Assembly: GCA_041697335.1 (NCBI GenBank)
Contig: JBGUGD010000030.1
Coordinates: forward strand, 32,001 to 96,000
Direction: 5' to 3'
DNA: 64,000 bases
From: Vampirovibrionaceae bacterium NZW_1234
Lineage (GTDB): Bacteria; Cyanobacteriota; Vampirovibrionia; Vampirovibrionales; JAGQHJ01
Shown here: piece by piece, positions 1-54,703 of the stretch
Numbering within the stretch: the stretch's first letter is position 1
Layout of the letters: every line of letters starts with the position of its first letter
The notes under the pieces: model-generated
What the model was told of the DNA's origin: nothing
What the model saw: the letters and a program-made list of their open reading frames with translations, nothing else
Databases searched by the model: none
Translations under genes and position numbers: made by a program

Positions 1-428
1 TACGAGGAGTTACTGCTGCGTTGATGGGGTTGATAGGGAGGAATGCTGCTGAGGAGGTAATGCTGATACTTCCTTTTCGTGAACCTTAAGAAATCCTTTA
101 AAAATGGCCTGAAACCCCTTTCATTAGAGCGTTTTCATCCGTAACTCCAGGGACGCAGGGCCTCTGTGGCATTGATGAGGCGTTGTGATTTATTTCAATT
201 TCAAATCGCTGTCGTGGGCACTGGCGGTGACATCCACCCTTCAGTGGATGAGCTATCGAAGGGCGGACTTCTATACTGATAGTGATCCACAACAACCACC
301 TCGTTTGTCTATCACACTGTTTTTCAGAGCGGTGTGATTTCTTTTGATTAGAGGCTTTTCTGTTCGCATTTTGGCGCACGTATAATGAAGCCAGAACACA
401 AATGTCTGATGAAAGAGGAGCAAACCGG

Positions 429-980
429 ATGTCTACCTTGTTGTCTACGGATTCGGCTTTGTTGCTGGTGATTGATATCCAGGAAAAGTTTTTGCCGGTG
501 CTGCACAATCCGGATCAGGTTGTGCAAGGTGCATCTCGCTTGATCAAGGGCTGCAATCAGTTGAATGTCCCTATTGTTGTGAGTGAGCAGTATCCTCAAG
601 GTTTGGGCCCCACTGTGGATGATTTAAAAGCTTTATTTACGCCAAGCACGGCGGTCATCACCAAAACGGCTTTTGGCTGTTGCGGCGACCCCTCGTTTGA
701 ATCTTATATTCAATCGTCGGGTCGAACCCAGATTATTGTCTGTGGCTTAGAAGCCCATGTGTGTGTTAATCAGACCGTTGTGCGACTTTTGGAGCTGGGG
801 TATTCGGTAGCTCTGGTGGAAGATGCCTTAGGGACACGGCATGCAAGCAATCTTGATATTGCCCTGCGCAAGCTGACCCAGCTGGGTGCCCTGCCTTACA
901 GTGTTGAAATGGTTCTTTTTGAGTTGCTCCGAGAGGCTTCCCATCCGGCATTCAAATCAGTGCAACAATTAATTCGTTGA
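429..980 (+). CDS. Isochorismatase-family (YcaC-like) cysteine hydrolase
   Basis: Motifs LLVIDIQEK, EQYPQGLGPT, KTAF and GLEAHVCV. GAGGAG at 415-420 favours ATG 429 over the ORF-track start at 402. Confidence 0.9.
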   Translation: MSTLLSTDSALLLVIDIQEKFLPVLHNPDQVVQGASRLIKGCNQLNVPIVVSEQYPQGLGPTVDDLKALFTPSTAVITKTAFGCCGDPSFESYIQSSGRTQIIVCGLEAHVCVNQTVVRLLELGYSVALVEDALGTRHASNLDIALRKLTQLGALPYSVEMVLFELLREASHPAFKSVQQLIR

Positions 981-40856: not shown

Positions 40857-42299
40857 GTGAGTACGTTTGAAACGATTGCGAATCAGGAGTACAAATACGG
40901 ATTTCAGACCCAGATTGAATCGGAAGTGATTCCCAAAGGGCTCACCGAAGAGACCATTCGTCTGATTTCGGCGAAAAAGAAAGAGCCTGCTTTTCTCTTG
41001 GAATTTCGCTTGAACGCGTTTCGGCAATGGCAAAAAATGCAGGAACCCCACTGGGTGGAAGCCAACTACCCGCCCATCGATTATCAAGACATCATTTATT
41101 ATGCTGCTCCCAAGCCGAAGAACAAGCCCAAAAGCTTAGATGAGGTGGACCCGGAGCTACTGCGCACCTTTGATAAATTAGGAATTTCTCTCACCGAGCA
41201 AAAGCGGCTGACCGGTGTGCCCATTGCCGTGGATGCTGTCTTTGATAGTGTATCGGTGGCGACCACTTTTAAAAAAGATTTGCTCAAACACGGCATTATC
41301 TTTTGTTCGTTTTCTGAAGCCGTGCAGGAATACCCGGAGTTGGTGGAAAAATACCTCGGCAGCGTCGTGCCGGTGACTGATAATTTTTATGCTGCCTTAA
41401 ATTCGGCGGTGTTTACCGACGGCTCTTTCTGCTACATTCCGCCCAACACGGTGTGTCCCATGGATCTGTCCACCTACTTTCGGATCAATACGGAAGGTTC
41501 GGGGCAGTTTGAACGCACGTTGATTGTGTGTGATGCCAACTCCAAGGTTAGCTATCTGGAAGGCTGCACGGCACCCATGTTTGATACCAACCAGCTGCAT
41601 GCGGCTGTCGTGGAACTGGTTGCCTTGGATAACGCCGAAATTAAATACTCCACGGTTCAGAACTGGTATGCTGGCGACCCCAAAACCGGTAAGGGCGGGA
41701 TTTATAACTTCGTCACCAAGCGCGGAAAATGTCTGGGTGAAAATTCCCATATTTCCTGGACCCAGGTTGAAACCGGCTCGGCCATTACCTGGAAGTACCC
41801 CAGCTGTATTCTGGTGGGAGACAACTCGAAAGGTGAATTCTACTCGGTGGCCCTGACCAACAATCTGCAGCAGGCCGATACCGGGACCAAGATGGTGCAT
41901 ATCGGGAAAAATACTACCAGTACCATTATTTCTAAAGGGATCTCTGCCGGTAAATCCCAAAATTCCTACCGTGGGCTTGTGCAAATACAAAAATCCGCAA
42001 CCGGGGCCAAGAATTTCACCCAATGTGACTCGATGCTGATTGGTTCGGAATGCTCTGCCAATACGTTTCCGGTCATCGATGTGCGGAACAGCTCAGCCCA
42101 TGTGGGACATGAAGCCACGACGGCCAAAATCACCGAGGATCAGCTTTTTTACTTCCACCAGCGTGGTATTAGCTCTGAAGATGCGATGTCGGCCATCATT
42201 AACGGCTTCTGCAAAGATGTCTTCAAAGAGCTGCCCGGCGAATTTGCTGTGGAAGCCACCCGATTGCTCGGGTTGAAACTGGAAAACAGTGTGGGGTAA
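40857..42299 (+). CDS. sufB: Fe-S cluster assembly protein SufB
   Basis: [38 protein letters not shown]. Confidence 0.98.
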
Positions 42300-42344
42300 C
42301 GACCGCGTTTATCAGCAGACCACCAACCAAGGAGACTGGAACCT

Positions 42345-43103
42345 GTGTTAGAAATTCGAGACGTATACGCCCGTGTCGACGAGAAAGAAATCCTCAAGGG
42401 GATTTCCTTAACCATTAATCCGGGTGAGATTCATGCCATTATGGGCCCCAATGGTTCAGGCAAAAGTACCTTAGCCAAAGTTATTGCTGGGCACCCGGCT
42501 TTCAGTGTGACCAGTGGAGATATTGTGTTTGAAGGTCAAAGCATTTTGGAAGATGATCCCGAAGACAGAGCCCGTAAAGGCTTGTTTTTGGCTTTCCAGT
42601 ACCCGATTGAAGTGCCTGGGGTCAATAATGCGAACTTCTTGCGGATGGCCTATAATGCCAAACGCGCCTATGAAGGCAAGGACGAGCTGGATCCGCTGGA
42701 ATTCCAAGACCTCCTAGATGAAAAGCTGAAGCTTGTGGAAATGGATCCGAGCTTTACCGACCGGGCCGTGAATGCCGGGTTTTCGGGCGGCGAAAAAAAG
42801 AAGAATGAAATATTACAGATGGCCGTTCTTGAGCCTAAAGTCAGCATTTTGGATGAAATTGACTCTGGCCTTGACATTGATGCATTGCGTGAGGTTGCCA
42901 ATGGCGTTAATAAGCTGATGTCTCCTGAAAAAGCCGTGGTCATGGTGACACACTACCAGCGTTTGTTGAATTACATCCAGCCGGATTATGTGCATGTTCT
43001 CTCGGAAGGCCGAATTATCAAGTCCGGTGGTAAAGAGTTGGCCTTGCAGCTGGAAGAACGCGGCTATGATTGGGTGATTGCGCAGCAAGCTGCCGAGGTA
43101 TAA
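42345..43103 (+). CDS. sufC: Fe-S cluster assembly ATPase SufC
   Basis: [36 protein letters not shown]. Confidence 0.98.
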
Positions 43104-43116
43104 GGGGATGTTGACC

Positions 43117-44469
43117 ATGGTTCGAACCCAAGAAGCCAAGACGCCGTTTGAACAAGCTGTTCAGGAACAATGGCGTACACAGAGTTCCGTATTACAGCCT
43201 GCATGGGTGGCATCGCGTCGTATTGGTGGCTGGACTCGCCTTGAGGCTTTGGGCTTGCCGAGTCGAGCCCTTGAGGCTTGGCGCTATGTAAACCTTGAGC
43301 CTGTATCTCGCCATGGGTTCGTGCCCTTGCCGGAGCCTGCGTCACTTGACGTACTCGACCCAGTGATTTCGGCATTAACTTTACCCGAGGCAGCGGCGAA
43401 ACTTGTTTTTGTGAATGGGATCTTTCAGCCAACATTGTCGGATACTACACGTTTACCTGAAGGTGTTTTGGCAGGCTCCCTTTTTGATGTGGCTGCGCAG
43501 CTGCCACAGCCCATTGAGTCCTACTTTGCGGCAGACATCGAGGCTGAAGCAGATGCCTTTGTTGCGTTAAATACAGCGCTCTTCTCAGAAGGCTACGCCG
43601 TGTATGTTCCTCAGGGCGTGAAATTGGATACGCCACTTGAGGTACTCTTCTTAACCGATGCCCAGGGGACGTCCCCTCAAGGGGCTCATGTACGGGGAGT
43701 GGTCATTGCCGAGCCCCACAGCCAGGTAACAATAATGGCTCGTTTTGCTTCGGCAGGTGCTGCATCGGCGACACCGACCCTGACTACGGCCGTGACGGAG
43801 CTGGTGGCTCAGCCGGGGGCCCTCTTAAACTATGTCCATGTCCAGACGGAAGCCGATACGGCAGCCCATATGGCGGCAACCAAGACCTGGGTTCATGGGG
43901 ATGCTCGTCTTCATGTCTCTACGTTGGCATTTGGCAGCCGTTTTTCTCGACATTATGTACATTCGGCAATGGTTTCAGAAGAAGCCTGCTGTGAACTCAA
44001 TGGTTTGGCCATCCTTCAGGGTGAGACCCATGTGTTTGATCATACGGTCATCGATCACCAAAAACCCCACGGCGGCAGTCAACAGTTGTACAAGGGCATC
44101 TTGGCGCAACGTAGCCGGGCCGATTTTGATGGCACCATTGTTATTGCGCCTCATGCCCAGAAGTCCGATGCCAGCCAATTGCATCAAACCCTGCTTCTTT
44201 CCGATGAGGCCCGGGTATTGACTCGACCGCAACTTCGGATTGATGCCGACGATGTGAAGTGTGCCCATGGGGCTTCGGTTGGACAATTATCGGAAGATCA
44301 GCTGTTTTATCTGACCAGCCGGGGGCTGCCTTTTTCGCAGGCCCAGGCCGTCTTAACCGCAGGTTTTGCCGATGAGATTGTCGAGGCCATTCCGTGTGAG
44401 GCCCTGAAAGCGCCGTTAATCGATCTGGTTCATTCCCGTCTTGAGGCGTTGTTGACGGCAAACGCCTAA
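43117..44469 (+). CDS. sufD: Fe-S cluster assembly protein SufD
   Basis: EAWRY, LVFVNG, PQL.IDADDVKCAHGA, LFYL.SRG. Start approximate. Confidence 0.95.
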   Translation: MVRTQEAKTPFEQAVQEQWRTQSSVLQPAWVASRRIGGWTRLEALGLPSRALEAWRYVNLEPVSRHGFVPLPEPASLDVLDPVISALTLPEAAAKLVFVNGIFQPTLSDTTRLPEGVLAGSLFDVAAQLPQPIESYFAADIEAEADAFVALNTALFSEGYAVYVPQGVKLDTPLEVLFLTDAQGTSPQGAHVRGVVIAEPHSQVTIMARFASAGAASATPTLTTAVTELVAQPGALLNYVHVQTEADTAAHMAATKTWVHGDARLHVSTLAFGSRFSRHYVHSAMVSEEACCELNGLAILQGETHVFDHTVIDHQKPHGGSQQLYKGILAQRSRADFDGTIVIAPHAQKSDASQLHQTLLLSDEARVLTRPQLRIDADDVKCAHGASVGQLSEDQLFYLTSRGLPFSQAQAVLTAGFADEIVEAIPCEALKAPLIDLVHSRLEALLTANA

Positions 44470-44490
44470 GCTCCGCAGACATCCCCACCC

Positions 44491-45768
44491 TTGACTATGG
44501 TGATTACAATGACGAACATTCTAAACTTGATGGAAAAAGAGACTGTGCCTTCATTTGATGTTGATCGCATTCGGGCAGATTTCCCGGTGCTGAGCCAGCA
44601 CGCCAATGGCTATCCCTTGGCCTATCTGGACAATGCGGCCACCACCCAAAAACCTCGGGCTGTTATTGACCGTATGACGGCATTTTACAGTCAAGAATAC
44701 GCCACTGTGCGCCGTGGGGTTTATAACTTGAGTGCGAAGGCTACCCAAGCCTATGAGGCTGTTCGCCATCAGGTGGCCTCTTTCATTAATGCGCCCTCGG
44801 CGTCGGACATTATCTTTGTCCGGGGAACGACGGAAGCCATCAACTTGGTGGCTCATGCCTATGGGCGGGCTTTTTTGAAGACCGGTGATGAAATTATCAT
44901 TTCGCACCTTGAGCATCATGCCAATATTGTTCCATGGCAACAGGTCTGTGAGGCCACCGGGGCTGTTTTGAAGGTGATCCCCATTAATGATCAGGGTGAT
45001 TTGATTTTGGAGGCCTATGAGGCACTGCTCTCAGAGCGGACGAAACTGGTGTCAGTAAATTACATTTCCAACTCCCTCGGCACGGTAAACCCGGTTAAGA
45101 CCATTATTGACAAGGCTCATGCCGTAGGCGCCGTGGTGATGATTGATGGCGCCCAGAGTGCGCCGCATATGAAAGTTGATGTCCAGGCTCTGGATTGCGA
45201 TTTTTACGCTTTCTCCGGTCATAAGATCTATGGCCCCAGTGGCATTGGCGTGTTGTATGGTAAGCGCGACCTGTTGGACAAAATGCCGCCCTATCAGACC
45301 GGGGGCGATATGATCGAGTGGGTGACCTTTGAGAAAACGACCTTTGCCAAGGCCCCGCAAAAGTTTGAGGCTGGAACCCCGGCCATTGTGGAAGTCATGG
45401 GGCTGGGTGCTGCCATAACATACTTGGAAGGCATTGGCTTTGAGACGATTCAGGCAGTTGAGTCGGAGCTGTTAGACTATGCCACGGTGCAGTTGGCTCA
45501 TGTGGATGGGCTTAAAATTATTGGCACCGCTAAAGAGAAGGCCAGTGTCATTTCCTTTGTCTTGGACGACATCCATCCGCACGATGTGGGAACGCTTCTG
45601 GATCAGCGAGGCATTGCGGTTCGGGCTGGCCATCACTGCACCCAGCCTGTTATGGCTCGGTTTAACGTTCCGGCCACGACACGGGCCTCTGTTTCGTTTT
45701 ATAATACTCGCGCTGAAATCGATCGCCTGATTGACGGCCTGAATTATGTGATCAAGGTGTTTCGCTAA
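44491..45768 (+). CDS. sufS: Cysteine desulfurase SufS
   Basis: YLDNAATTQKP, EHHAN, FSGHK, EAGTP, RAGHHC. True start probably a few codons downstream. Confidence 0.97.
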   Translation: MTMVITMTNILNLMEKETVPSFDVDRIRADFPVLSQHANGYPLAYLDNAATTQKPRAVIDRMTAFYSQEYATVRRGVYNLSAKATQAYEAVRHQVASFINAPSASDIIFVRGTTEAINLVAHAYGRAFLKTGDEIIISHLEHHANIVPWQQVCEATGAVLKVIPINDQGDLILEAYEALLSERTKLVSVNYISNSLGTVNPVKTIIDKAHAVGAVVMIDGAQSAPHMKVDVQALDCDFYAFSGHKIYGPSGIGVLYGKRDLLDKMPPYQTGGDMIEWVTFEKTTFAKAPQKFEAGTPAIVEVMGLGAAITYLEGIGFETIQAVESELLDYATVQLAHVDGLKIIGTAKEKASVISFVLDDIHPHDVGTLLDQRGIAVRAGHHCTQPVMARFNVPATTRASVSFYNTRAEIDRLIDGLNYVIKVFR

Positions 45769-45770
45769 CG

Positions 45771-46226
45771 ATGTCTGAGTATAACGAACTCTATCAACAG
45801 GTTATTTTGGAGCACAACAAAAAGCCCCGTAATTTTGCGGTCCTCGAGTCGGCGAATCACTATGCACTGGGGAAAAACCCTCTGTGTGGCGATCAGTTTG
45901 CCGTTTATGTGGATGTGGATGATCAGGGTGTGATTCAGGATATCAGCTTTCAGGGGACAGGGTGTGCCATTTCCAAGGCCAGTGCTTCCCTGATGACGGT
46001 AAACATTAAAGGTAAAACCCAGGACGAAGCCCGGCAGATGAAAGACGAGTTTCAACAAATGCTCACCGGGGCTCTGGATCCCAAAACCCATGAGCATCAT
46101 CTGGGGCGTTTAAGCATTTTCCAGGGGGTCCAAGAGTATCCGGTCCGGGTCAAATGTGCCACCTTGGCATGGCACACGCTGGATGCCGCCTTGAGTGGTG
46201 ACGCTCAGGAAGTGACCACGGAATAA
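45771..46226 (+). CDS. sufU: SufU (NifU-like) sulfur transfer protein
   Basis: LYQQVILEH, NPLCGD, GCAIS, RVKCATL.WH. Confidence 0.93.
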   Translation: MSEYNELYQQVILEHNKKPRNFAVLESANHYALGKNPLCGDQFAVYVDVDDQGVIQDISFQGTGCAISKASASLMTVNIKGKTQDEARQMKDEFQQMLTGALDPKTHEHHLGRLSIFQGVQEYPVRVKCATLAWHTLDAALSGDAQEVTTE

Positions 46227-46253: not shown

Positions 46254-47423
46254 TTAGGGGCTGTGGATGATTTCCAACACCCATTGAGTCACCTGTTCCA
46301 GTTCATCCACATAAATAAACTCACCCAAACTGTGGGAAAAGTGGAAACCCATGCCCAAGACCACGCTGGGAATGTTTTTGTGATTTAAAATATGGGCGTC
46401 AGACCCAATATTCATGGGTAAAATGCTTGGTTCAATCCCCAACTTTCGGCAGGCAGAGGCGGCTCTCAGGACAGCAGGATGGTCCTTGGGCACCACGAAG
46501 CCATCGTACTTGTGGATGGGGTTAAAGCGGATGGCCCCACGTGGAAATTGTTCCTGAATTTCCTGGCAAACCTCGTGAACCTGCTTCATCAGCCGATCCA
46601 GGGCCTCATTGTCATGGCTTCGGGCTTCGCCGCGAATTACGGTGCTGGGAGCCACGATGTTCATGGCGTCGCCCCCTTGGATGACCCCAAGGTTCATGGT
46701 GGTTTCCGGGCTCAAACGTCCTGAAGGAAGACTGCCACAAAGGTGGACCGCCATCTCAATGGCGCTGACTCCGGCCTCTGGCGCAATACCCGCATGCGAG
46801 CGGAGACCTTCGAGTTCAAAAATCAAGCTCTTTTGCGTGGGGCCGGCATGAAAAATGTCGCCGATGTTTCCTTCCCCATCCAGCACAAATCCCATGGCAG
46901 CTTGACTGGCGGTGATGTCAAAAGCTTTTAAACCGAGTAAGCCCACTTCTTCCTGGGTGGAAAACAAAAACTCCACAGGATGGCGGTCGTCTTGGGGAGT
47001 TTCATGGAGCTTTTTGGCGACCGCCAGCATCACGGCAATTCCCGATTTGTCGTCGGCCCCCAAAATGGTTTTTCCGGCCGAGCGAATGATGGGGCGTCCA
47101 TCGGTAGAATCTTCAATGGCTTCTATGCCTTCACACGGAGGAACGCTATCCATATGGGCGCTCAATAAAAAGGTATCTTTGGCGCTGTCACCCGCAATGC
47201 GAACCAGGAGGTTGCCGGCATCATCAATGATTTGGTCTGAGAAGCCCAGTGCGTTCAGGTGATCGGCAATGTACTGGCGCACCTGATCTTCCTTGCCCGA
47301 TGGATTGGCAATGGGGACCAATTCCTTAAACCATGTCGTTGTTGCCGTCATGCGTCCTGAACTCCTCGCATACATGCCTTTGGGGGTGATGTCCATCCTA
47401 TCGTTTTTTCGGCGCCGGATCAA
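46254..47423 (-). CDS. M20 family metallopeptidase (peptidase T-like)
   Basis: SAHMDSV, LGADDK, EEVGL.G, HAG..PE, GSDA, HS..E. True start likely downstream of 47423. Confidence 0.9.
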   Translation of the reverse strand: MIRRRKNDRMDITPKGMYARSSGRMTATTTWFKELVPIANPSGKEDQVRQYIADHLNALGFSDQIIDDAGNLLVRIAGDSAKDTFLLSAHMDSVPPCEGIEAIEDSTDGRPIIRSAGKTILGADDKSGIAVMLAVAKKLHETPQDDRHPVEFLFSTQEEVGLLGLKAFDITASQAAMGFVLDGEGNIGDIFHAGPTQKSLIFELEGLRSHAGIAPEAGVSAIEMAVHLCGSLPSGRLSPETTMNLGVIQGGDAMNIVAPSTVIRGEARSHDNEALDRLMKQVHEVCQEIQEQFPRGAIRFNPIHKYDGFVVPKDHPAVLRAASACRKLGIEPSILPMNIGSDAHILNHKNIPSVVLGMGFHFSHSLGEFIYVDELEQVTQWVLEIIHSP

Positions 47424-47444: not shown

Positions 47445-49967
47445 TTAAATGCTTTGGGGCAGTTTTTTCAGTTCGCCTTCGTAGATGTAATTTTTGAGTT
47501 CCGCATGGACTTGCTGAGGATCGACTTTATGGCGGCATTCCCCGGTTTCAATAGCCGCTTTGGCCACGGCAGAGGCAACAGCCGGGGGCACTCTGAAATC
47601 AAAGGCTCCTGGAATAATCTGGCCTTCTTCGATTTCCTTGGGAGTAATGAGACTGGCAATGGCAAAGGCTGCCGAAAGCTTCATGTCATCATTGATGTTG
47701 CGTGCCCGAACATCCAGAGCACCTCGGAAAATGCCCGGAAAAGCCAGAGAGTTATTGACCTGGTTGGGGAAGTCACTGCGACCGGTTGCCACGATCTTGG
47801 CACCTGCAGCAAAGGCTTCGTTGGGCATAATTTCCGGGACCGGGTTGGCCAGGGCGAAAATTACCGGATCCGGGGCCATGGATTTGACCATATCCTGATT
47901 GACAGTGCCGGGCACAGAAAGCCCGATAAAGATGTCAGCCCCCTTCATCACGTCTTCCAGATTGCCCTTGTTTTTCGAGAGGTTGGTGATTGCGGCAATT
48001 TGGTCTTTGTAGGGATTCATGCCACCTTTTCTGCCTTGGTAAATGGCCCCTTTAGAATCACAAATCGTAATGTCCTTGGCACCGGCTTTCATCAGGAGCT
48101 GAGAGACACTTAAAGCAGCAGCACCTGCCCCGTTAATGACGATACGAACCTCATCCATGCCTTTATCCACCGCCTTAATGGCGTTGACGATGCCTGCCAA
48201 AACCACGACAGCTGTTCCATGCTGGTCATCATGGAAGACGGGGATATCGACAGCTTGGTTTAGCTTCTGCTCGATTTCAAAGCAACGGGGGGCGGAGATG
48301 TCTTCCAGGTTGATGCCACCAAACACAGGGGCAATCTTGACAATGGTGTCTACGATTTCATCAACTTCCTGGGTGCGCAAGCAGATGGGGAAGGCCTCAA
48401 CCCCACCGAAGGTTTTAAAGAGTACGGCTTTACCTTCCATCACGGGCATGGCGCCACTGGGCCCCAGATTCCCGAGGCCTAAAACGGCACTGCCGTCTGT
48501 AACCACGGCCACAAGGTTGTTTTTAGCTGTCAGCTCATAGGCTTCGTCCGGGTTGTCTCGAATGAGTTCACAGGGCTGGCTGGCACCGGGCGAGGAATAG
48601 ATCAGGTTGTACAAATGGTGATCCCGAATGGGGAGCTTGGTTTTGACTTCGATAACACCATGATAGCGCTGGTGCAGGTCAAGAGACTCTTCTTCCAAGG
48701 ATGAAAATTCCCGAGTTTGCGGGGACTCGACCCAGGCATTGGTGCCTTCATAGACGTAGTCCATGACTTTGGCTTCAATGCTTTCGGGATCGACTTTGAC
48801 CTGGGCCACGTTAGTGTCAATAGCGGCTTGGGCCACCGCTTTGGCCAGCTTGGCAGAGACCCTGAAGTCCAAGGCTCGGGGAATGATAAATTCGGGCGAG
48901 AGTTCCTGCGGGCTCACCAAATCGGCCATGGCTTTGGCCGCACTGTAGAACATGTGGTGGTTAATGTCGGTGGCCCGAACATCCAAGGCTCCACGGAAAA
49001 TACCGGGGTAAATCAACGAGGAGTTCAGTTGGTTTGGAAAATCGCTTCGTCCGGTTGCAACAATTCGTGCACCGGCTTCTTTAGCGGCCTCGTAGGTGAT
49101 TTCAGGGGTTGGAATGGCCAGGGCAAAGACGATGGGATCTTTGGCCATGCTTTTAACCATGTCCGGGGTCAGGATATTGCCTGAAGAAAAGCCGATAAAG
49201 ACATCGGCCCCTTTAATCAGGTCGGCCAGGCTGCCTTTCTGGTCTTCCGGATTGGTCAGGCGTGCCAATTCGGATTTGACCCAATTCAGGCCTTCGAGGC
49301 GGCGATAATACAAGGCACCATCGCGATCGCAGACTTTAACATTGGCGACACCAACCTGCTTCAAAAATTTTGCGGTCGCCACGCCGCCGGCACCCGCACC
49401 GGCAATGACGATGGACAGGTCTTCAAGTTTCTTGTCTACCACTTTCAAGGCGTTGAGCAGGGCTGCAAAGACAGCCACGGCTGCCCCTTGTTGGTCGGAG
49501 TGAAAGATGGGGAGTGAAATGGCACGTTTTAAGCGCTCTTCTAGGGTAAAACACTTGGGCGATGACACGTCTTCGATATGAAAGCCCCCGAACGTTGGTG
49601 ACAGATAGCGGATGATCTCGACCATCTCGTCCACATCCGGGGTGTTAATGGCAATGGGGAAGGCATCAATCCCGGCAAAGGTCTTGTGAAACACACACTT
49701 GGCTTCAAGCATGGGGATAGCGGCATAGGGGCCTGCATTGCCAAGGCCGTAAACGCTCGACCCATCCGAAATAACGGCAACGGTGTTGCCCCGGATGGTG
49801 TAATCAAAGGATTTAAGATGGTCTCGTTCGATTTCGATACAGGGTCTGGCCACACCCGGAGTGTAGACCACGCTCAAGGTGGCTCGATCCCGAATAGGCA
49901 CCTTGGGCTGAATACCAATTAACCCCCGATACCGCCGCCGATAGGCTAAACCATCTTCAAAAACCAT
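47445..49967 (-). CDS. Tandemly duplicated (two-module) malic enzyme
   Basis: Two roughly 420-aa malic enzyme modules, each with DG...GLGN, GAGA and ATGRSDFPNQ; AGAGG RBS before ATG 49967. Confidence 0.93.
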   Translation of the reverse strand: MVFEDGLAYRRRYRGLIGIQPKVPIRDRATLSVVYTPGVARPCIEIERDHLKSFDYTIRGNTVAVISDGSSVYGLGNAGPYAAIPMLEAKCVFHKTFAGIDAFPIAINTPDVDEMVEIIRYLSPTFGGFHIEDVSSPKCFTLEERLKRAISLPIFHSDQQGAAVAVFAALLNALKVVDKKLEDLSIVIAGAGAGGVATAKFLKQVGVANVKVCDRDGALYYRRLEGLNWVKSELARLTNPEDQKGSLADLIKGADVFIGFSSGNILTPDMVKSMAKDPIVFALAIPTPEITYEAAKEAGARIVATGRSDFPNQLNSSLIYPGIFRGALDVRATDINHHMFYSAAKAMADLVSPQELSPEFIIPRALDFRVSAKLAKAVAQAAIDTNVAQVKVDPESIEAKVMDYVYEGTNAWVESPQTREFSSLEEESLDLHQRYHGVIEVKTKLPIRDHHLYNLIYSSPGASQPCELIRDNPDEAYELTAKNNLVAVVTDGSAVLGLGNLGPSGAMPVMEGKAVLFKTFGGVEAFPICLRTQEVDEIVDTIVKIAPVFGGINLEDISAPRCFEIEQKLNQAVDIPVFHDDQHGTAVVVLAGIVNAIKAVDKGMDEVRIVINGAGAAALSVSQLLMKAGAKDITICDSKGAIYQGRKGGMNPYKDQIAAITNLSKNKGNLEDVMKGADIFIGLSVPGTVNQDMVKSMAPDPVIFALANPVPEIMPNEAFAAGAKIVATGRSDFPNQVNNSLAFPGIFRGALDVRARNINDDMKLSAAFAIASLITPKEIEEGQIIPGAFDFRVPPAVASAVAKAAIETGECRHKVDPQQVHAELKNYIYEGELKKLPQSI

Positions 49968-50126
49968 AACCAAACCTCTTCCAAACAATATGGTTCGTGT
50001 GCGTCGCTTCTTGTAGTATACAGCGAACCGGTGGCCCCTACCAAATCCGAACTTGTCGTGGGTTATGGCTTGGTTTCAGGCCATATGAGACATGAAGTCA
50101 ATGGATTCGAGGGTAACTTGAATGTT

Positions 50127-50161
50127 TTTCACCGTGCGGACAATTTGTCCGTACGGTGAAA
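50127..50161. repeat. 17-bp-arm palindrome (one G.T pair) with a 1-nt centre
   Basis: TTTCACCGTGCGGACAA-T-TTGTCCGTACGGTGAAA. Confidence 0.9.
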
Positions 50162-50545
50162 TCTTCCTGAAGTAGAGGAGTTTTAGTCTCGATTACGGCG
50201 GTTTTGAATGGGTAATACGAGGTCTTTAGCATTTTTTAGCCTTATCTTAGGGGGTATATTTAGTCATATTCCCATTATTCCTGGTATTTAAACTTAAGGT
50301 GTTCTAAAATCTTCTGTCTCGAGAGCTTTTGTGGGGACCGTTGAAAAATTACCATACTAGGGAGTCTTGTAGACGCCAGATCTCACTAGCACAAGGTGGA
50401 TTTCAGCGGGTTTTATGGGGATGAATCGATGCTTACGACTAGAAATGCTGCATGAATTTAAACAACTTAGGCAATTTTTCTTATCGTGATTTGTTGATTC
50501 TTCTTGAGATACAATCATTGGACATTGCATTTTGGGGAACGTGCT

Positions 50546-53500
50546 TTGAAGGGTATACCATTTACGATTCGAGGGGTGACACCGTCTGTAACAACCCCGC
50601 CATTGACACCCAAGCCGCAGCGGTTTGCTGGGTATCGTGTTGATGGCGAAGGAGCCCGATTTTTCAAGCCCATGCCCGGTCCTGATGAGGCTCCAGAATC
50701 CCGTGTTCACTTGGAGTATCGTCAGGGAAAAAGTAACGCCACCCAATCGGTTCCTATGCAATGGAACCCCAAGGTCAAGCAGTGGGAAACCCCTGAAAAC
50801 AAACGAATTTCTTTAAATGAAGCGATATACTATCGTTTTGTTCGACAGAAGCCCGGGCAGCCGGATGAAGCTGTATTGGATCATACAGAGGCCCAAAATG
50901 GCTTCAATGTCATTCCGGCTCAGTCGCCTGATCCCAGCAGTGTGGGACCGGCATTGCTGGTTTTTCGTCGCAGTCTGGTGACCCCGGAACAGCTTCAAGC
51001 CCATAATCAACACCGGGATGTTGAGGGCGATCATGTGGTGTCCAAACAGACGCATTTTAATCGATTGGGTGGTTCCGATGCCTCCAACGGCTTCTTACGG
51101 CAATTGTTTCACCAGTATGGTATTAAGATGGTCGAAGATCGGCCTTTAATTGGTGGCGATAACCTGAGCGCTCACGGCTATTGGACCAATTCGCTGTATC
51201 AGTTGAACTCCATTATTCGTCATCCATCCTCTTTTGATACCTTGGCCTTGGCCAATCTGGAAGATGGTGCCCGGATGTGTTTTGATGGCGCCTTTGTTAA
51301 CGAGGGAATGAACGGGGTTCACTACCTGGCGAATCTGTATTACGGTCAGGATTCCCCTTTTCTGAACTGGTTCGATTACGGCAAGCTGGATCAGTTTCCC
51401 CATCAGCCTCTGAAACTTGGCATTTTGCCGGTCAAGCGCGATCCCAAGACCGGTGAGGAGGTGGTCAATCATGCGGCCTGGAATTTACGCCTGATTCCTC
51501 CCAAGAACCGAGACAACCCGGAAAGCCCCTACTTCATTGAATTATACGATCCGCGCTTGGAAAACCCCGATGGGACCCTCCGGCCAGCCTCAGAAACCAA
51601 GCACCTGTTTTTAACCAACAGCCAGGATTCCATTCAGAAGTATCGCTTCCCGATTAAGCAGTCTCGGCCCCAAGACATTGAGCTCTTGCAGGAGGCCACA
51701 GAGATCAAGAATCCCAACGAGCGGGCCAAGACCCTGATGCGCCTGTTAAGCGAACATAATCGCTTTGAATTGACCACCCGCATGGAAGACAACAGTGGTT
51801 ATTGTTGGGATGGTCAGATTGATGTGAAAAAGGTCAATATTGAGAATCCTGAGGTTACCCAATACGTAGCCGATGCCTGTCGCTATTGGACGGACAAGGT
51901 CGATCGCTTGTATACCAGCCATGTGGGACGGGCCTTTAGCCGTATGGCGGGGACTGACAGCAAACCCAACTGGCTGCAGATTATTTCTGACAATACCAAG
52001 AAGGCCTTGGGCGAGGAACAGGGCGTTTTACCGGCCTTGAACCGTGGTGAGACCCTATCGGTCTCAGAGGCATCGATTCAACAGGCATTGAAAGCCTACC
52101 GGGTGAAAAAGCAAAAACAAACGCGTTCGGCTGGGGCCTTTATGGCAGACAAGATTCACACCCAACTTCCCTTAGGCACCTTGCCCGCCTCACCATGGAT
52201 GCAGATTCTCTTAAACACCCCTCGGCTCAAGCAACTGCTGAACGAGGGAGAGACTCCGCTATGGCTTGAGGTGGCAACCACGCTCTTGAAACCCGCTTTT
52301 AAACTTTTGGATTGGATGTTGCCTTCTCGCAAGCTGGGCCAACGGGCTTTGACTTGGCTCCACAATAAATTTGCCAGCCAGCGTTCTTTTAAGAATCAGT
52401 TGGCGGCCAAGCTGGATAAGTCTTTAACGCCTGCATTAAAGCAAAAACTGGCTGATCCGGTTTTGGGGCATTTGGTGTTTGAGGCTTTGGGACGAAGTAT
52501 TTTTCTTTCCTTACTGACGGGGCAGTTCAGTTCGCCTACCGCGCCGGATAAAGACTTGGCGCCGACTAAAATTGCTGCTCGTATGGCCCAGACCTTGCCT
52601 CCGGAACTGGCCAAGGCGGTGCCCAATCAAGCGGCTCGGCTGTTAAGCCGTTTTCTGGTTCGTGAACTTCAGGAGCTTGAGTTGACCCAGCTCAATGCGC
52701 CTCTCACCCAGCTTCTAAAAGAGATCACTCCGGAAGGGGCGGTTGTGGCCCGTCATGTTCTCCATGAGCGCCGTCTCGGCCTTCACTGGCGGATTGATGC
52801 CATGAAAGATCTGGGGGACATGGATGGCGTTCGGGCCGAGCCTTCAACGCAACTTCGTTATGAGCGCTTGCGGGACAAAGAGCTTCCCAAAGTGGTTAAT
52901 ATTATGTCCCAGGTGGCCCAGGGCATTCGTGAGGCTTTCCCCAATAGCATAATTAAAGCTGAAATCACGGACTTGGAAGCCTTGGCTGGGGATAAGGCCA
53001 CCGAATTGTTCAAGTATCTGATGGGTACCCGGGTCATTAACGGTATTCCCAACTATAACTGGATGTATTCCTCCGGTCACAAAGCCGTTCGGATGACGGC
53101 CAATCCCGATGGAGACTATCCGGAACAGTTAACGCCCGCAGATTTCCTTCAGCACAAGCTCAAAGCCATGTTGGAGGTGCTGCCGATGGACCAAGCCTTG
53201 CTGTTCCAGAATATGACCTCCAATCATGACAAATCCACGTCGGTTTTTGGGCTGACGGTGCATCCCTATGAGGCCCGCTTGAACTACCTGGGCTGGATTG
53301 GTATGAACTTTCAGGATAACGGCCAAGATCGGGGGCATTTCCCCTTGGCGGTCAATGAGCTTCAATCCATGCGTGCGCTTCAATGTCTACGGCAGTCGCT
53401 GCCAGATGGGGTCTATGATCGCTTGAAGTCGCTTGCTCGTGAAAAACAAGAGGCTATCCTGGCCACGGCAGCCCAAAAAGCCAAGGCCCGCGAGGATGAT

Positions 53501-54703
53501 TTTACCGAGATTGGACCTTACTTACTCAAGCAAGACCAACGTCCTGACCCGGTGACTCATCGGCCAGTTCCCTTGGAGGTTAAGCGCAATTATGTGGACG
53601 CCATGTTTGACGTGCTTCAGCCTGGAGATCTGGGACTCAATGCAGATCAGCACCAGCAATTGAAAAATGCCGTCGGAGCCTTGCTTACGGAACCCAGCGA
53701 AGTGAAAGCCTTCCGGGGTAAATTTTCTAATGCGTTTCATGCCTTGGTGAGCCATCCGGATGCCTTGGCCAATGCGCTTGGGAAAGATGAAGCTAAAATT
53801 CAAGCCGTGAAGCCGGTTTTAGAAGCGCTGGCCCCTGTGTTTGATTCGAAAGTGTGGGAGGTGACGCAACACTTTGCCAAGACCTCCGGCGCTTGGTTAG
53901 GCTATCAGCAATTGGATTATGCTGTGGGTTGGGTCTTGGATGCGATCAGAGAGTCCTTGGAAGAGACCTCGCCTTTAAAGGCCGCCTTGGCCGATCCCAA
54001 AGCCAAAGTGGCCACGACGCAAGCCATTTATACACAGATGGTGATGCCAGGCTTGGAACAGTATAAGCGCATTGTGGCCTTACAGATGGTCACTCCTGGG
54101 GATCCGACCCTGTATCTGCCCGATTTGTTGGGGCAAGCCGGGGGTGAGGACCTGAAGAACATGTATTTGGGCAATCGGGAATTGATCCGCCGGGATTGGT
54201 TGAACCCACAAAGTCCTTATCACAACCCTGTCATTCATCGCTTCTTTAACGAATTGGCCGATCTGGTGCGCTTGCGTCATGAAAATCATGTGCTCAACAA
54301 CGGTTTTGTGGAGCTGCCCTTGGATCCGGCTCGTCCCGAGGATCAGGCAAAATTGAACCAGGCCCCCATTGTTCCGCTGGTTCGGGACAATGGCACGGAT
54401 CAGGCTCTGTGTCTTGTCAATCTCGGGGCACCTGAGAGCCCTTGGAACAGTTGGGTGGCCATGCGAGAACAGCGTGAACCCAATTCCCCTTATTCGGAAT
54501 TACACTCCACCCAACCGAAGGTATCCAATTACAGCCTGGATCTGACTCACTTGGGCGTCCCGGAGGGGGCCCTTTTCGAAAGTGTGGATCCCGAGGGGCG
54601 TGGCACAAAATACGTGGTGCGTAACCGTCGGCTGGTTGATGCCGATCAGCCTGACAAGGGCATTGATGTGGCCATTGCCCGGGTTTTAAAGCGAGTGTCT
54701 TAA
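50546..54703 (+). CDS. Very large GH13 (alpha-amylase family) glycoside hydrolase with long insertions
   Basis: HGYWT, DGAFVNE, NPEV...RYW, WRIDAMKD, KAEIT, SNHD and PGDPTLY occur in canonical order. GGGGA RBS favours TTG 50546 (ORF track starts at 50504). Confidence 0.8.
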   Translation: MKGIPFTIRGVTPSVTTPPLTPKPQRFAGYRVDGEGARFFKPMPGPDEAPESRVHLEYRQGKSNATQSVPMQWNPKVKQWETPENKRISLNEAIYYRFVRQKPGQPDEAVLDHTEAQNGFNVIPAQSPDPSSVGPALLVFRRSLVTPEQLQAHNQHRDVEGDHVVSKQTHFNRLGGSDASNGFLRQLFHQYGIKMVEDRPLIGGDNLSAHGYWTNSLYQLNSIIRHPSSFDTLALANLEDGARMCFDGAFVNEGMNGVHYLANLYYGQDSPFLNWFDYGKLDQFPHQPLKLGILPVKRDPKTGEEVVNHAAWNLRLIPPKNRDNPESPYFIELYDPRLENPDGTLRPASETKHLFLTNSQDSIQKYRFPIKQSRPQDIELLQEATEIKNPNERAKTLMRLLSEHNRFELTTRMEDNSGYCWDGQIDVKKVNIENPEVTQYVADACRYWTDKVDRLYTSHVGRAFSRMAGTDSKPNWLQIISDNTKKALGEEQGVLPALNRGETLSVSEASIQQALKAYRVKKQKQTRSAGAFMADKIHTQLPLGTLPASPWMQILLNTPRLKQLLNEGETPLWLEVATTLLKPAFKLLDWMLPSRKLGQRALTWLHNKFASQRSFKNQLAAKLDKSLTPALKQKLADPVLGHLVFEALGRSIFLSLLTGQFSSPTAPDKDLAPTKIAARMAQTLPPELAKAVPNQAARLLSRFLVRELQELELTQLNAPLTQLLKEITPEGAVVARHVLHERRLGLHWRIDAMKDLGDMDGVRAEPSTQLRYERLRDKELPKVVNIMSQVAQGIREAFPNSIIKAEITDLEALAGDKATELFKYLMGTRVINGIPNYNWMYSSGHKAVRMTANPDGDYPEQLTPADFLQHKLKAMLEVLPMDQALLFQNMTSNHDKSTSVFGLTVHPYEARLNYLGWIGMNFQDNGQDRGHFPLAVNELQSMRALQCLRQSLPDGVYDRLKSLAREKQEAILATAAQKAKAREDDFTEIGPYLLKQDQRPDPVTHRPVPLEVKRNYVDAMFDVLQPGDLGLNADQHQQLKNAVGALLTEPSEVKAFRGKFSNAFHALVSHPDALANALGKDEAKIQAVKPVLEALAPVFDSKVWEVTQHFAKTSGAWLGYQQLDYAVGWVLDAIRESLEETSPLKAALADPKAKVATTQAIYTQMVMPGLEQYKRIVALQMVTPGDPTLYLPDLLGQAGGEDLKNMYLGNRELIRRDWLNPQSPYHNPVIHRFFNELADLVRLRHENHVLNNGFVELPLDPARPEDQAKLNQAPIVPLVRDNGTDQALCLVNLGAPESPWNSWVAMREQREPNSPYSELHSTQPKVSNYSLDLTHLGVPEGALFESVDPEGRGTKYVVRNRRLVDADQPDKGIDVAIARVLKRVS

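Follow-up and report, generated by a model that had tools for sequence, protein, structure and literature searches.

The small-type malic enzymes (MEs) are homodimers in which the catalytic Tyr of each site comes from the partner protomer, so that a gene carrying two such enzymes in one open reading frame (ORF) raises the question of how many working sites its product has and what the second copy is for. A gene of this kind lies on the minus strand of the window, that is, the whole stretch of 64,000 nucleotides analysed here, from contig JBGUGD010000030.1 of Vampirovibrionaceae bacterium NZW_1234. A first-pass annotation had proposed that the Tyr of module 1 and the core of module 2 make one site, and that the reciprocal site is dead or allosteric. 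Our analysis, in which that site is a predicted one, bears this proposal out. We consider it probable that the tandem ME is a single-chain pseudo-dimer with one working composite site (module-1 arm plus module-2 core), because complementary conservation throughout the family, the published trans role of the Tyr and the predicted geometry all point the same way. The features concerned are listed below; counts out of 144 refer to distinct tandem proteins, and statements taken from articles cited by PMC number or preprint DOI refer to the parts of those articles that were accessible.

47445..49967, minus strand: tandem small-type ME gene (P0001), 840 amino acids (aa); from ORF, Pfam and half-to-half alignment
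48732..49967, minus strand: module 1, residues 1-412, Tyr-arm donor with degenerate catalytic pocket; from conservation and alignment to 1vl6
49851..49865, minus strand: swapped arm motif of module 1 with catalytic Tyr35; Y[TS]PG in 144/144, trans role from PMC7902834 and PMC11944484
49497..49499, minus strand: Ser157 in place of the module-1 triad Asp; Asp in 3/144, triad as in PMC11944484
49275..49400, minus strand: adenosine-2'-phosphate half of the module-1 NADP site (G190, G192, G195, D214, R223, K231); 143-144 of 144, matching MaeB D233/R242/K250
49113..49115, minus strand: Ile285, where the ANP motif of module 1 would have its nicotinamide-contacting Asn; Asn in 27/144
48699..48731, minus strand: inter-module linker, about residues 413-423; predicted local distance difference test (pLDDT) 84-91 by 10-residue blocks
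47445..48698, minus strand: module 2, residues 424-840, intact catalytic core and degenerate arm; from conservation and alignment to 5cee
48582..48599, minus strand: module-2 arm Y457-A462; one residue inserted after the Tyr in 149/149 rows, Tyr kept in 128/144
48225..48431, minus strand: module-2 catalytic core K513, E555, D556, D580, D581; each in 144/144
48006..48059, minus strand: module-2 D637...R646...K654, MaeB-type NADP+ specificity residues; from mapping to MaeB and conservation

Two complementary modules and one composite site

The ORF (49967-47445, minus strand) has an ATG start and 840 codons uninterrupted by stops, with a Shine-Dalgarno-like purine-rich stretch 7 nt upstream of the ATG; a TTG in the same frame, at 49988, could serve as an alternative start, though none is needed. 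Pfam places PF00390 twice and PF03949 twice on the protein, and the two modules align with 49% identity over 406 residues (E 8e-144), which confirms the two small-type modules read earlier in this ORF, together with all the motifs then quoted. The absence of a phosphotransacetylase (PTA) domain of the MaeB kind was likewise correct, since Pfam found none in the protein and a search of the window genome (94.75% complete) gave no member of the PTA family PF01515. In the same genome the tandem ME is the only PF00390 locus. By its domains and fold the protein is a small ME, but instead of a single module of ~400 aa, a homodimer and two equivalent sites, it has two modules per chain and a second site that is never complete. 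It scored below the cut-off of NF009501 (709.5 against 1178) and of the class I ME profile NF010052 (225.4 bits against 326).

The tandem set, built from 120 proteins and 29 loci, comprised 144 distinct sequences after the window's own locus and five duplicates had been dropped. Each tandem was split into its modules, and these were aligned with 196 single small MEs, of which 79 came from a GTDB scan and 117 from short matches to module 1 (two module-1 fragments and one module-2-type protein were dropped). The GTDB scan, over 1 of 64 parts, yielded single MEs only, served as a control set and gave a usable ORF for 79 of 80 loci. Seven core residues were scored: Lys513, Glu555, Asp556, Asp580, Asp581, Asn708 and Asn739. 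The single enzymes showed all seven in 196/196 and the arm motif in 195/196.

In the tandems these two traits were divided between the modules. The Y[TS]PG arm was present in module 1 of all 144, and module 2 showed it in two only, out of register; conversely, module 2 held all seven core residues in 144/144 and module 1 never more than five. The module-1 equivalent of Asn739 was found in 1/144 and that of Asn553 in 0/144. In the window's module 1 the triad Asp is replaced by S157, and Asn residues at the nicotinamide and substrate end by H130, I285 and S316. The earlier description of an altered module-1 core thus holds for the triad Asp and the Asn residues, although LEAK keeps the catalytic K90 and FHIEDV the metal acids E132 and D133; similarly, the Tyr loop of module 2 is altered by its one-residue insertion, but Y457 is still in register with the upstream helix. 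Mean pairwise identity followed the same division, module 1 being the more similar in the arm (66% vs 45%) and module 2 in the d2 core (80% vs 63%) and the Rossmann region (66% vs 56%). The Tyr/Lys/Asp triad, the metal acids and the NAD(P) motifs are therefore available for one site, formed by the module-1 arm and the module-2 core, in 144/144 tandems, and the homologs share the substitutions, as the first-pass annotation had asked to be checked.

In small MEs the catalytic Tyr is supplied in trans by the partner protomer (PMC7902834, section 6; PMC11944484, section 3.6), and in the entangled dimer of the Entamoeba enzyme the triad consists of Tyr65' from the partner, Lys120 and Asp193 (PMC11944484). 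An AlphaFold2 model of the whole chain, made from a 119-row alignment, reached a pLDDT of 93.8 and a predicted template modelling score of 0.92. Each module, arm included, superposed at 1.2 Å on a protomer of a small ME structure: module 2 (424..812) on that of 5cee over 387/387 residues, and module 1 (3..382) on that of 1vl6 over 376 residues. When the halves were folded as separate chains, the pairing score was 0.94 and that of the best control 0.00; the mark used in this test was reached by 116 of 157 solved pairs and by 2 of 215 mismatched pairs. The two-chain runs showed at least 96% contact agreement with partner pLDDT of at least 92, and contacts between arm and Lys helix appeared in both directions (P508-C43 and C466-P85). 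In this model module 2 touches residues 285-286, 306-309, 315 and 317 of module 1, around the altered nicotinamide end, while the reciprocal contacts are narrower (709 and 731).

On this basis, two diverged small ME copies in one chain would fold as an internal arm-swapped pseudo-dimer, and Tyr35 of module 1 would complete the pocket of module 2, where Lys513, the triad Asp and the metal acids are all present. The predicted working site would turn malate and NADP+ into pyruvate, CO2 and NADPH, and the indispensable role of module 1 would be that of arm donor and scaffold. The pocket made of the module-1 core and the module-2 arm would be unable to run the ME reaction, because it is without the Lys-tuning Asp and the nicotinamide-holding Asn and its Tyr loop carries an insertion. 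The cofactor is likely NADP+: MaeB is described as owing its NADP+ specificity to K250 and to the neutralisation of D233 by R242 (PMC7902834), and D233, R242 and K250 map to D637, R646 and K654 in module 2 and to D214, R223 and K231 in module 1. The window genome has no second PF00390 locus, and 31 of 32 others sampled from the order have no match to the query besides the tandem, which is therefore most likely the protein that carries malic enzyme function there.

Several points weigh against this reading. Of the 144 module-1 copies, 117 retain the catalytic Lys and 127, 107 and 101 the respective three metal acids, and the Tyr457 position is still Tyr in 128/144 module-2 copies, so that the second pocket may catalyse a slow reaction or a different one. 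Both structure predictors may have copied known dimers, the arm swap being a predicted one; in particular, the two-chain pass may reflect likeness to solved ME dimers and shows geometry rather than binding. The 144 tandems are best-scoring relatives of mutual kinship, and the counts are not independent trials. The full-length P0316 (860 aa) is without Y[TS]PG in either module, and P0318 and all shorter forms are without the module-1 D/R/K set, which argues against an essential sensor.

The second pocket

The adenosine-2'-phosphate half of module 1 stands apart from the rest of its pocket. D214, R223 and K231 are present in 144/144 module-1 copies, against 144, 142 and 129 of 144 for their module-2 counterparts and 192, 159 and 165 of 196 for the single enzymes. 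Module 1 would thus retain this half while the nicotinamide and malate half has been remodelled, as expected of an effector site. As in a pseudoenzyme, the triad Asp survives in just 3/144 and the ligand residues in all. In the full-length forms module 1 likely still binds the adenosine-2'-phosphate end of NADP(H), and at about even odds the second pocket would be an NADP(H) effector site or a vestige. The earlier suggestion that module 1 may sense nucleotide therefore stands for the D/R/K set; the ATGRSDFPNQ motif then cited is not a family trait (Arg in 70/144), and relatives without the domain limit the idea. The metabolic setting fits an NADP(H) effector without proving one: glucose-6-phosphate dehydrogenase was found in none (0/41) of the searched genomes of the order and the transhydrogenase beta subunit PntB in 2/41, and the window genome holds phosphoenolpyruvate (PEP) carboxylase, PEP carboxykinase and three Iso_dh-family genes. 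A regulatory role for an inactive ME subunit has a precedent in beta1 of Cleome NAD-ME, which carries Y132S and D297V (bioRxiv 10.1101/2021.06.16.448762).

The strongest alternative, to which we give somewhat less than an even chance, differs in the role of the second pocket only: module 1 would be a purely structural arm donor and its nucleotide fold a ligand-free vestige in the course of being lost. This agrees with the eroded or deleted nucleotide domain of 15 intermediate and 7 reduced forms in the list of 150 representatives (see below), with the lower identity of the Rossmann region in module 1 (56%) than in module 2 (66%) and with the loss of the module-1 nicotinamide-end residues. Yet D214, R223 and K231 are kept more strictly in module 1 than in module 2 or the single enzymes, and folding alone would hardly explain an invariant Lys at the 2'-phosphate position.

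It is unlikely that the second pocket is active in another way, for instance as an oxaloacetate decarboxylase, in a malolactic-type reaction or in slow turnover as an ME, by means of K90, the metal acids, Tyr457, Y73, H94 and H130. Most module-1 copies do keep the Lys and metal acids, position 73 has become Tyr in 131 of 149 rows with Y457 present in 128/144, and YtsJ of B. subtilis switches reaction with NADPH (PMC8092299). None of the proposed residues is invariant, however, 17 of 144 module-1 copies hold only zero or one of the seven core residues, and the pocket is absent from the shortened relatives.

We find it quite improbable that the modules pair between chains, 1 with 2 or like with like, to give oligomers or filaments in place of a closed single chain. 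Small ME dimers are entangled, so folding within one chain may be hard (PMC11944484), but the single-chain model is confident up to and including the linker, the fixed anchors on either side of the linker stand 41-46 residues apart in 114 of 120 tandem relatives, and a like-with-like arrangement would leave no canonical site at all. An assembly artefact or a recent neutral duplication, which the first-pass annotation already held to be unlikely, is practically negligible given halves only 49% identical, 119 other full-length tandem clusters and module clades with support of 100 and 91.

Our broadest proposal, which we offer tentatively, is that module 1 is a disabled twin that donates its Tyr and reads NADPH/NADP+ through the 2'-phosphate site, and that the relatives record a passage from homodimer to tandem to a 500-aa monomer with the Tyr in cis, repeated by independent fusions and replaying how the large-type MEs may have become self-sufficient. 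In addition, head-to-tail fusion of an entangled dimer might give a putative natural knot; nothing on the knotting of such fusions was found in the literature searched.

Distribution, shortened relatives and surroundings

When proteins of 462-1470 aa were searched, each of the best 120 matches had two modules and a length of 780-928 aa; leaving the query aside, identities were 55-88%, and the matches listed comprised 119 other full-length tandem clusters in that same identity range. Names borne by these matches or their clusters include Vampirovibrionales, Vampirovibrio chlorellavorus (a named species, with homologue WP_303675167.1), Armatimonadetes, NC10, Syntrophobacterales, Desulfobaccales and Ca. 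Sulfotelmatobacter, and would point to a non-photosynthetic relative of the Cyanobacteria as the source of the window. A sample of 151 genomes of the class included 32 others of the window's order. In 31 of these, the two matches shared a single frame of 844-889 codons and were the only ones to the query, and most other families of the class had single-module MEs. One 898-base contig (run X3) crosses the module junction without differences; all four runs used represent one sample, possibly the window's own source, so that this look at the junction, which had been asked for, adds little.

A tree of 22 tandems and 26 single enzymes grouped the module-1 copies with a Shimodaira-Hasegawa-like approximate likelihood ratio (SH-aLRT) of 100, the module-2 copies with 91, and both together against the singles with 98, the single MEs of Bacillaceae being the nearest group. 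This phylogeny of the halves, another check that had been suggested, is consistent with one old duplication behind the tandem, although the nearest singles may be unsampled. The best 120 short matches to module 1 were two module-1 fragments, one module-2-type protein (P0136) and 117 ordinary single MEs. As candidates for split two-gene forms these are more likely to be truncated calls, since a cluster-mate of P0136 carries the upstream linker. The tandem is real, old and widespread. No description of it was found in the literature searched, where most subscription papers and supplements lay outside reach, and no tandem class is named in the accessible parts of PMC5958461 or PMC12704298; the architecture is apparently undescribed.

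Shortened forms were found by a profile search of all 50% representatives, and the 150 listed were classed by Tyr-to-Asp spacing: 89 were canonical, 36 were motif-less or fragments, 2 were full tandems, 15 were intermediate (660-812 aa), 7 were reduced (479-535 aa) and 1 had the arm after the core. The distant relatives form a length series of about 840, 660-730 and 480-535 aa. Intermediates keep the module-1 arm and part of the d2 domain, often with the C-terminal helices, and their nucleotide domain is eroded or gone; the reduced forms have in addition lost most of the module-2 arm. According to this series it is the arm, not the nucleotide domain, that module 1 cannot lose, and the sensor idea is therefore limited to the full-length forms. 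A family of 720 aa comprises at least 114 full-length clusters, of which 113 carry a single arm motif and 113 a single HDD-type core motif. Its members (P0326, P0495-P0611) lie on contigs barely exceeding the gene, and these gene-sized contigs give a hint of a protist source, possibly a ciliate; the ciliate ME passages searched, in the accessible parts of their sources, give no architecture.

Within the window's own class, forms of ~500 aa turn up in one family, where 2 of 73 genomes have them. In L114 (G322), L115 (G283), P0328, P0352, P0357, P0366 and P0379, all of ~480-535 aa, the arm is at the N-terminus, one domain is vestigial and the core has no arm of its own. From this layout, the ~480-535-aa forms are candidate cis-Tyr monomers; the single-sequence model of a 493-aa form (pLDDT 33.5) was not used. 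In a catalytic-core tree, which left out 30 of 94 rows, eight intermediate and reduced forms cluster (85/95) near the main tandems, on a weak backbone with bootstrap unsettled, and P0321, P0406/P0461 and P0316 sit elsewhere. The starred branches of this tree, whose backbone is weak, force at least two origins and oppose a single one for all shortened forms, which we rejected; several origins are possible. In a profile test of 23 cases, the module-1 profile gave the highest score for 21 of the N-terminal parts and the module-2 profile for 17 of the second parts; the controls (21/21 single MEs) scored best on the single profile. Since degenerate sequences are favoured by a degenerate profile, the test can only hint at a derivation of shortened forms from tandems. 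Relatives that have lost most of module 1 suggest how a two-subunit enzyme can shrink to one chain, and the earlier idea of the tandem as a model for larger monomer scaffolds is retained as an analogy only.

In P0334 (848 aa, three full-length cluster members; also P0465/P0466), an N-terminal extension precedes an intact core that has no arm motif, and the motif lies instead in the degenerate second copy. Because P0334 is placed among single MEs with N-terminal extensions (95/95), it probably arose by a separate fusion, with the polarity reversed. P0316, with an altered TGRS loop in module 2 and the D/R/K set in both modules, is possibly a wholly non-catalytic variant. P0459, P0436 and P0388 are small-type MEs fused behind other regions, which we take to resemble EF-hand and cyclic-nucleotide-binding domains in P0459 and P0436 and an exonuclease in P0388.

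No conserved partner was found within 1.5 kb in 30 tandem loci, except for a divergent gene in nine of them that we assume, from a motif, to be leuB-like. Upstream of the tandem ME in the window, a near-perfect palindrome of 36 bases (50127-50162), with ~10 similar copies on at least 6 other contigs, some in close pairs, looks like a dispersed repeat similar to repetitive extragenic palindromic elements. Beyond it and divergent from the tandem ME, an ORF of 1399 aa (50504-54703, plus strand) gave no Pfam or NCBIfam match; by eye, it may be a very diverged glycoside hydrolase or amylase-like protein. Directly downstream, on the same strand as the tandem ME, is a Peptidase T-like M20 gene (46254-47423, minus strand; TIGR01883 238.7 bits, below the cut-off), which was not seen as a conserved neighbour among the related loci. 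An iron-sulphur assembly operon (40857-46226, plus strand), whose genes we take to be sufB-sufC-sufD-sufS-sufU-like, converges on it.

Relation to known malic enzymes

An apparently undescribed architecture in a core metabolic family, which is fixed in most of one bacterial order and also found in several other phyla, would amount to an obligate arm-swapped dimer made asymmetric by nature, with halves that can be mutated one at a time. It also offers a candidate built-in NADP(H) sensor, and its length series makes the question of how a composite inter-subunit site becomes a single-chain site testable on real intermediates.

The tandem ME shares with the small class II enzymes (Ca. Phytoplasma 5cee, T. 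maritima TM0542 1vl6, P. horikoshii 1ww8/2dvm and E. histolytica 3nv9) the fold and the motifs, and its predicted arm-swapped composite site would match theirs, in which the Tyr comes in trans. Those enzymes are homodimers of ~390-490 aa with two equal sites, whereas the tandem has both protomers in one chain and one canonical site. YtsJ of B. subtilis is a small NADP-ME responsive to NADPH (PMC8092299), but it is a single module, and its switch needs no second one. MaeB (B. bacteriovorus 6zn4/6zng and E. coli 9krw) resembles the tandem in having a small-type core with an appended non-catalytic module derived from an enzyme, and in its NADP+ specificity residues. In MaeB the appended PTA domain binds acetyl-CoA and forms a hexamer; in the tandem the appended module is a second ME copy that would also give a catalytic residue. 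The MaeB hook insertion is missing, module 2 having a gap opposite the MaeB insert.

The pairing of a catalytic unit with an inactive paralogue without the triad Tyr and Asp, with stabilising or regulatory roles, is also known from the C4 NAD-ME alpha/beta1 of Cleome (bioRxiv 10.1101/2021.06.16.448762). That enzyme is of the large type and encoded by two genes, each subunit has its own site and, unlike module 1, the dead subunit gives no catalytic residue. Finally, the large class I MEs (human ME2 1gz3 and E. coli SfcA 6ags) carry Tyr, Lys and Asp in one chain, as does the tandem, and the same layout is reached by its relatives of 480-535 aa. They differ in their ~27% identity to the tandem, in being tetramers and in their N-terminal domain, and classes I and II form well-separated branches (PMC5958461). 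Large-type enzymes with the Tyr in cis align to model residues 20..832 over ~380 residues at 2.4-3.1 Å and 26-30% identity, as exemplified by 1gz3_A (Z 39.9, root mean square deviation 2.6, chain 93..563). Read from the range ends only, the simplest reading would be that a large-type chain overlays the arm of module 1 and the core of module 2.

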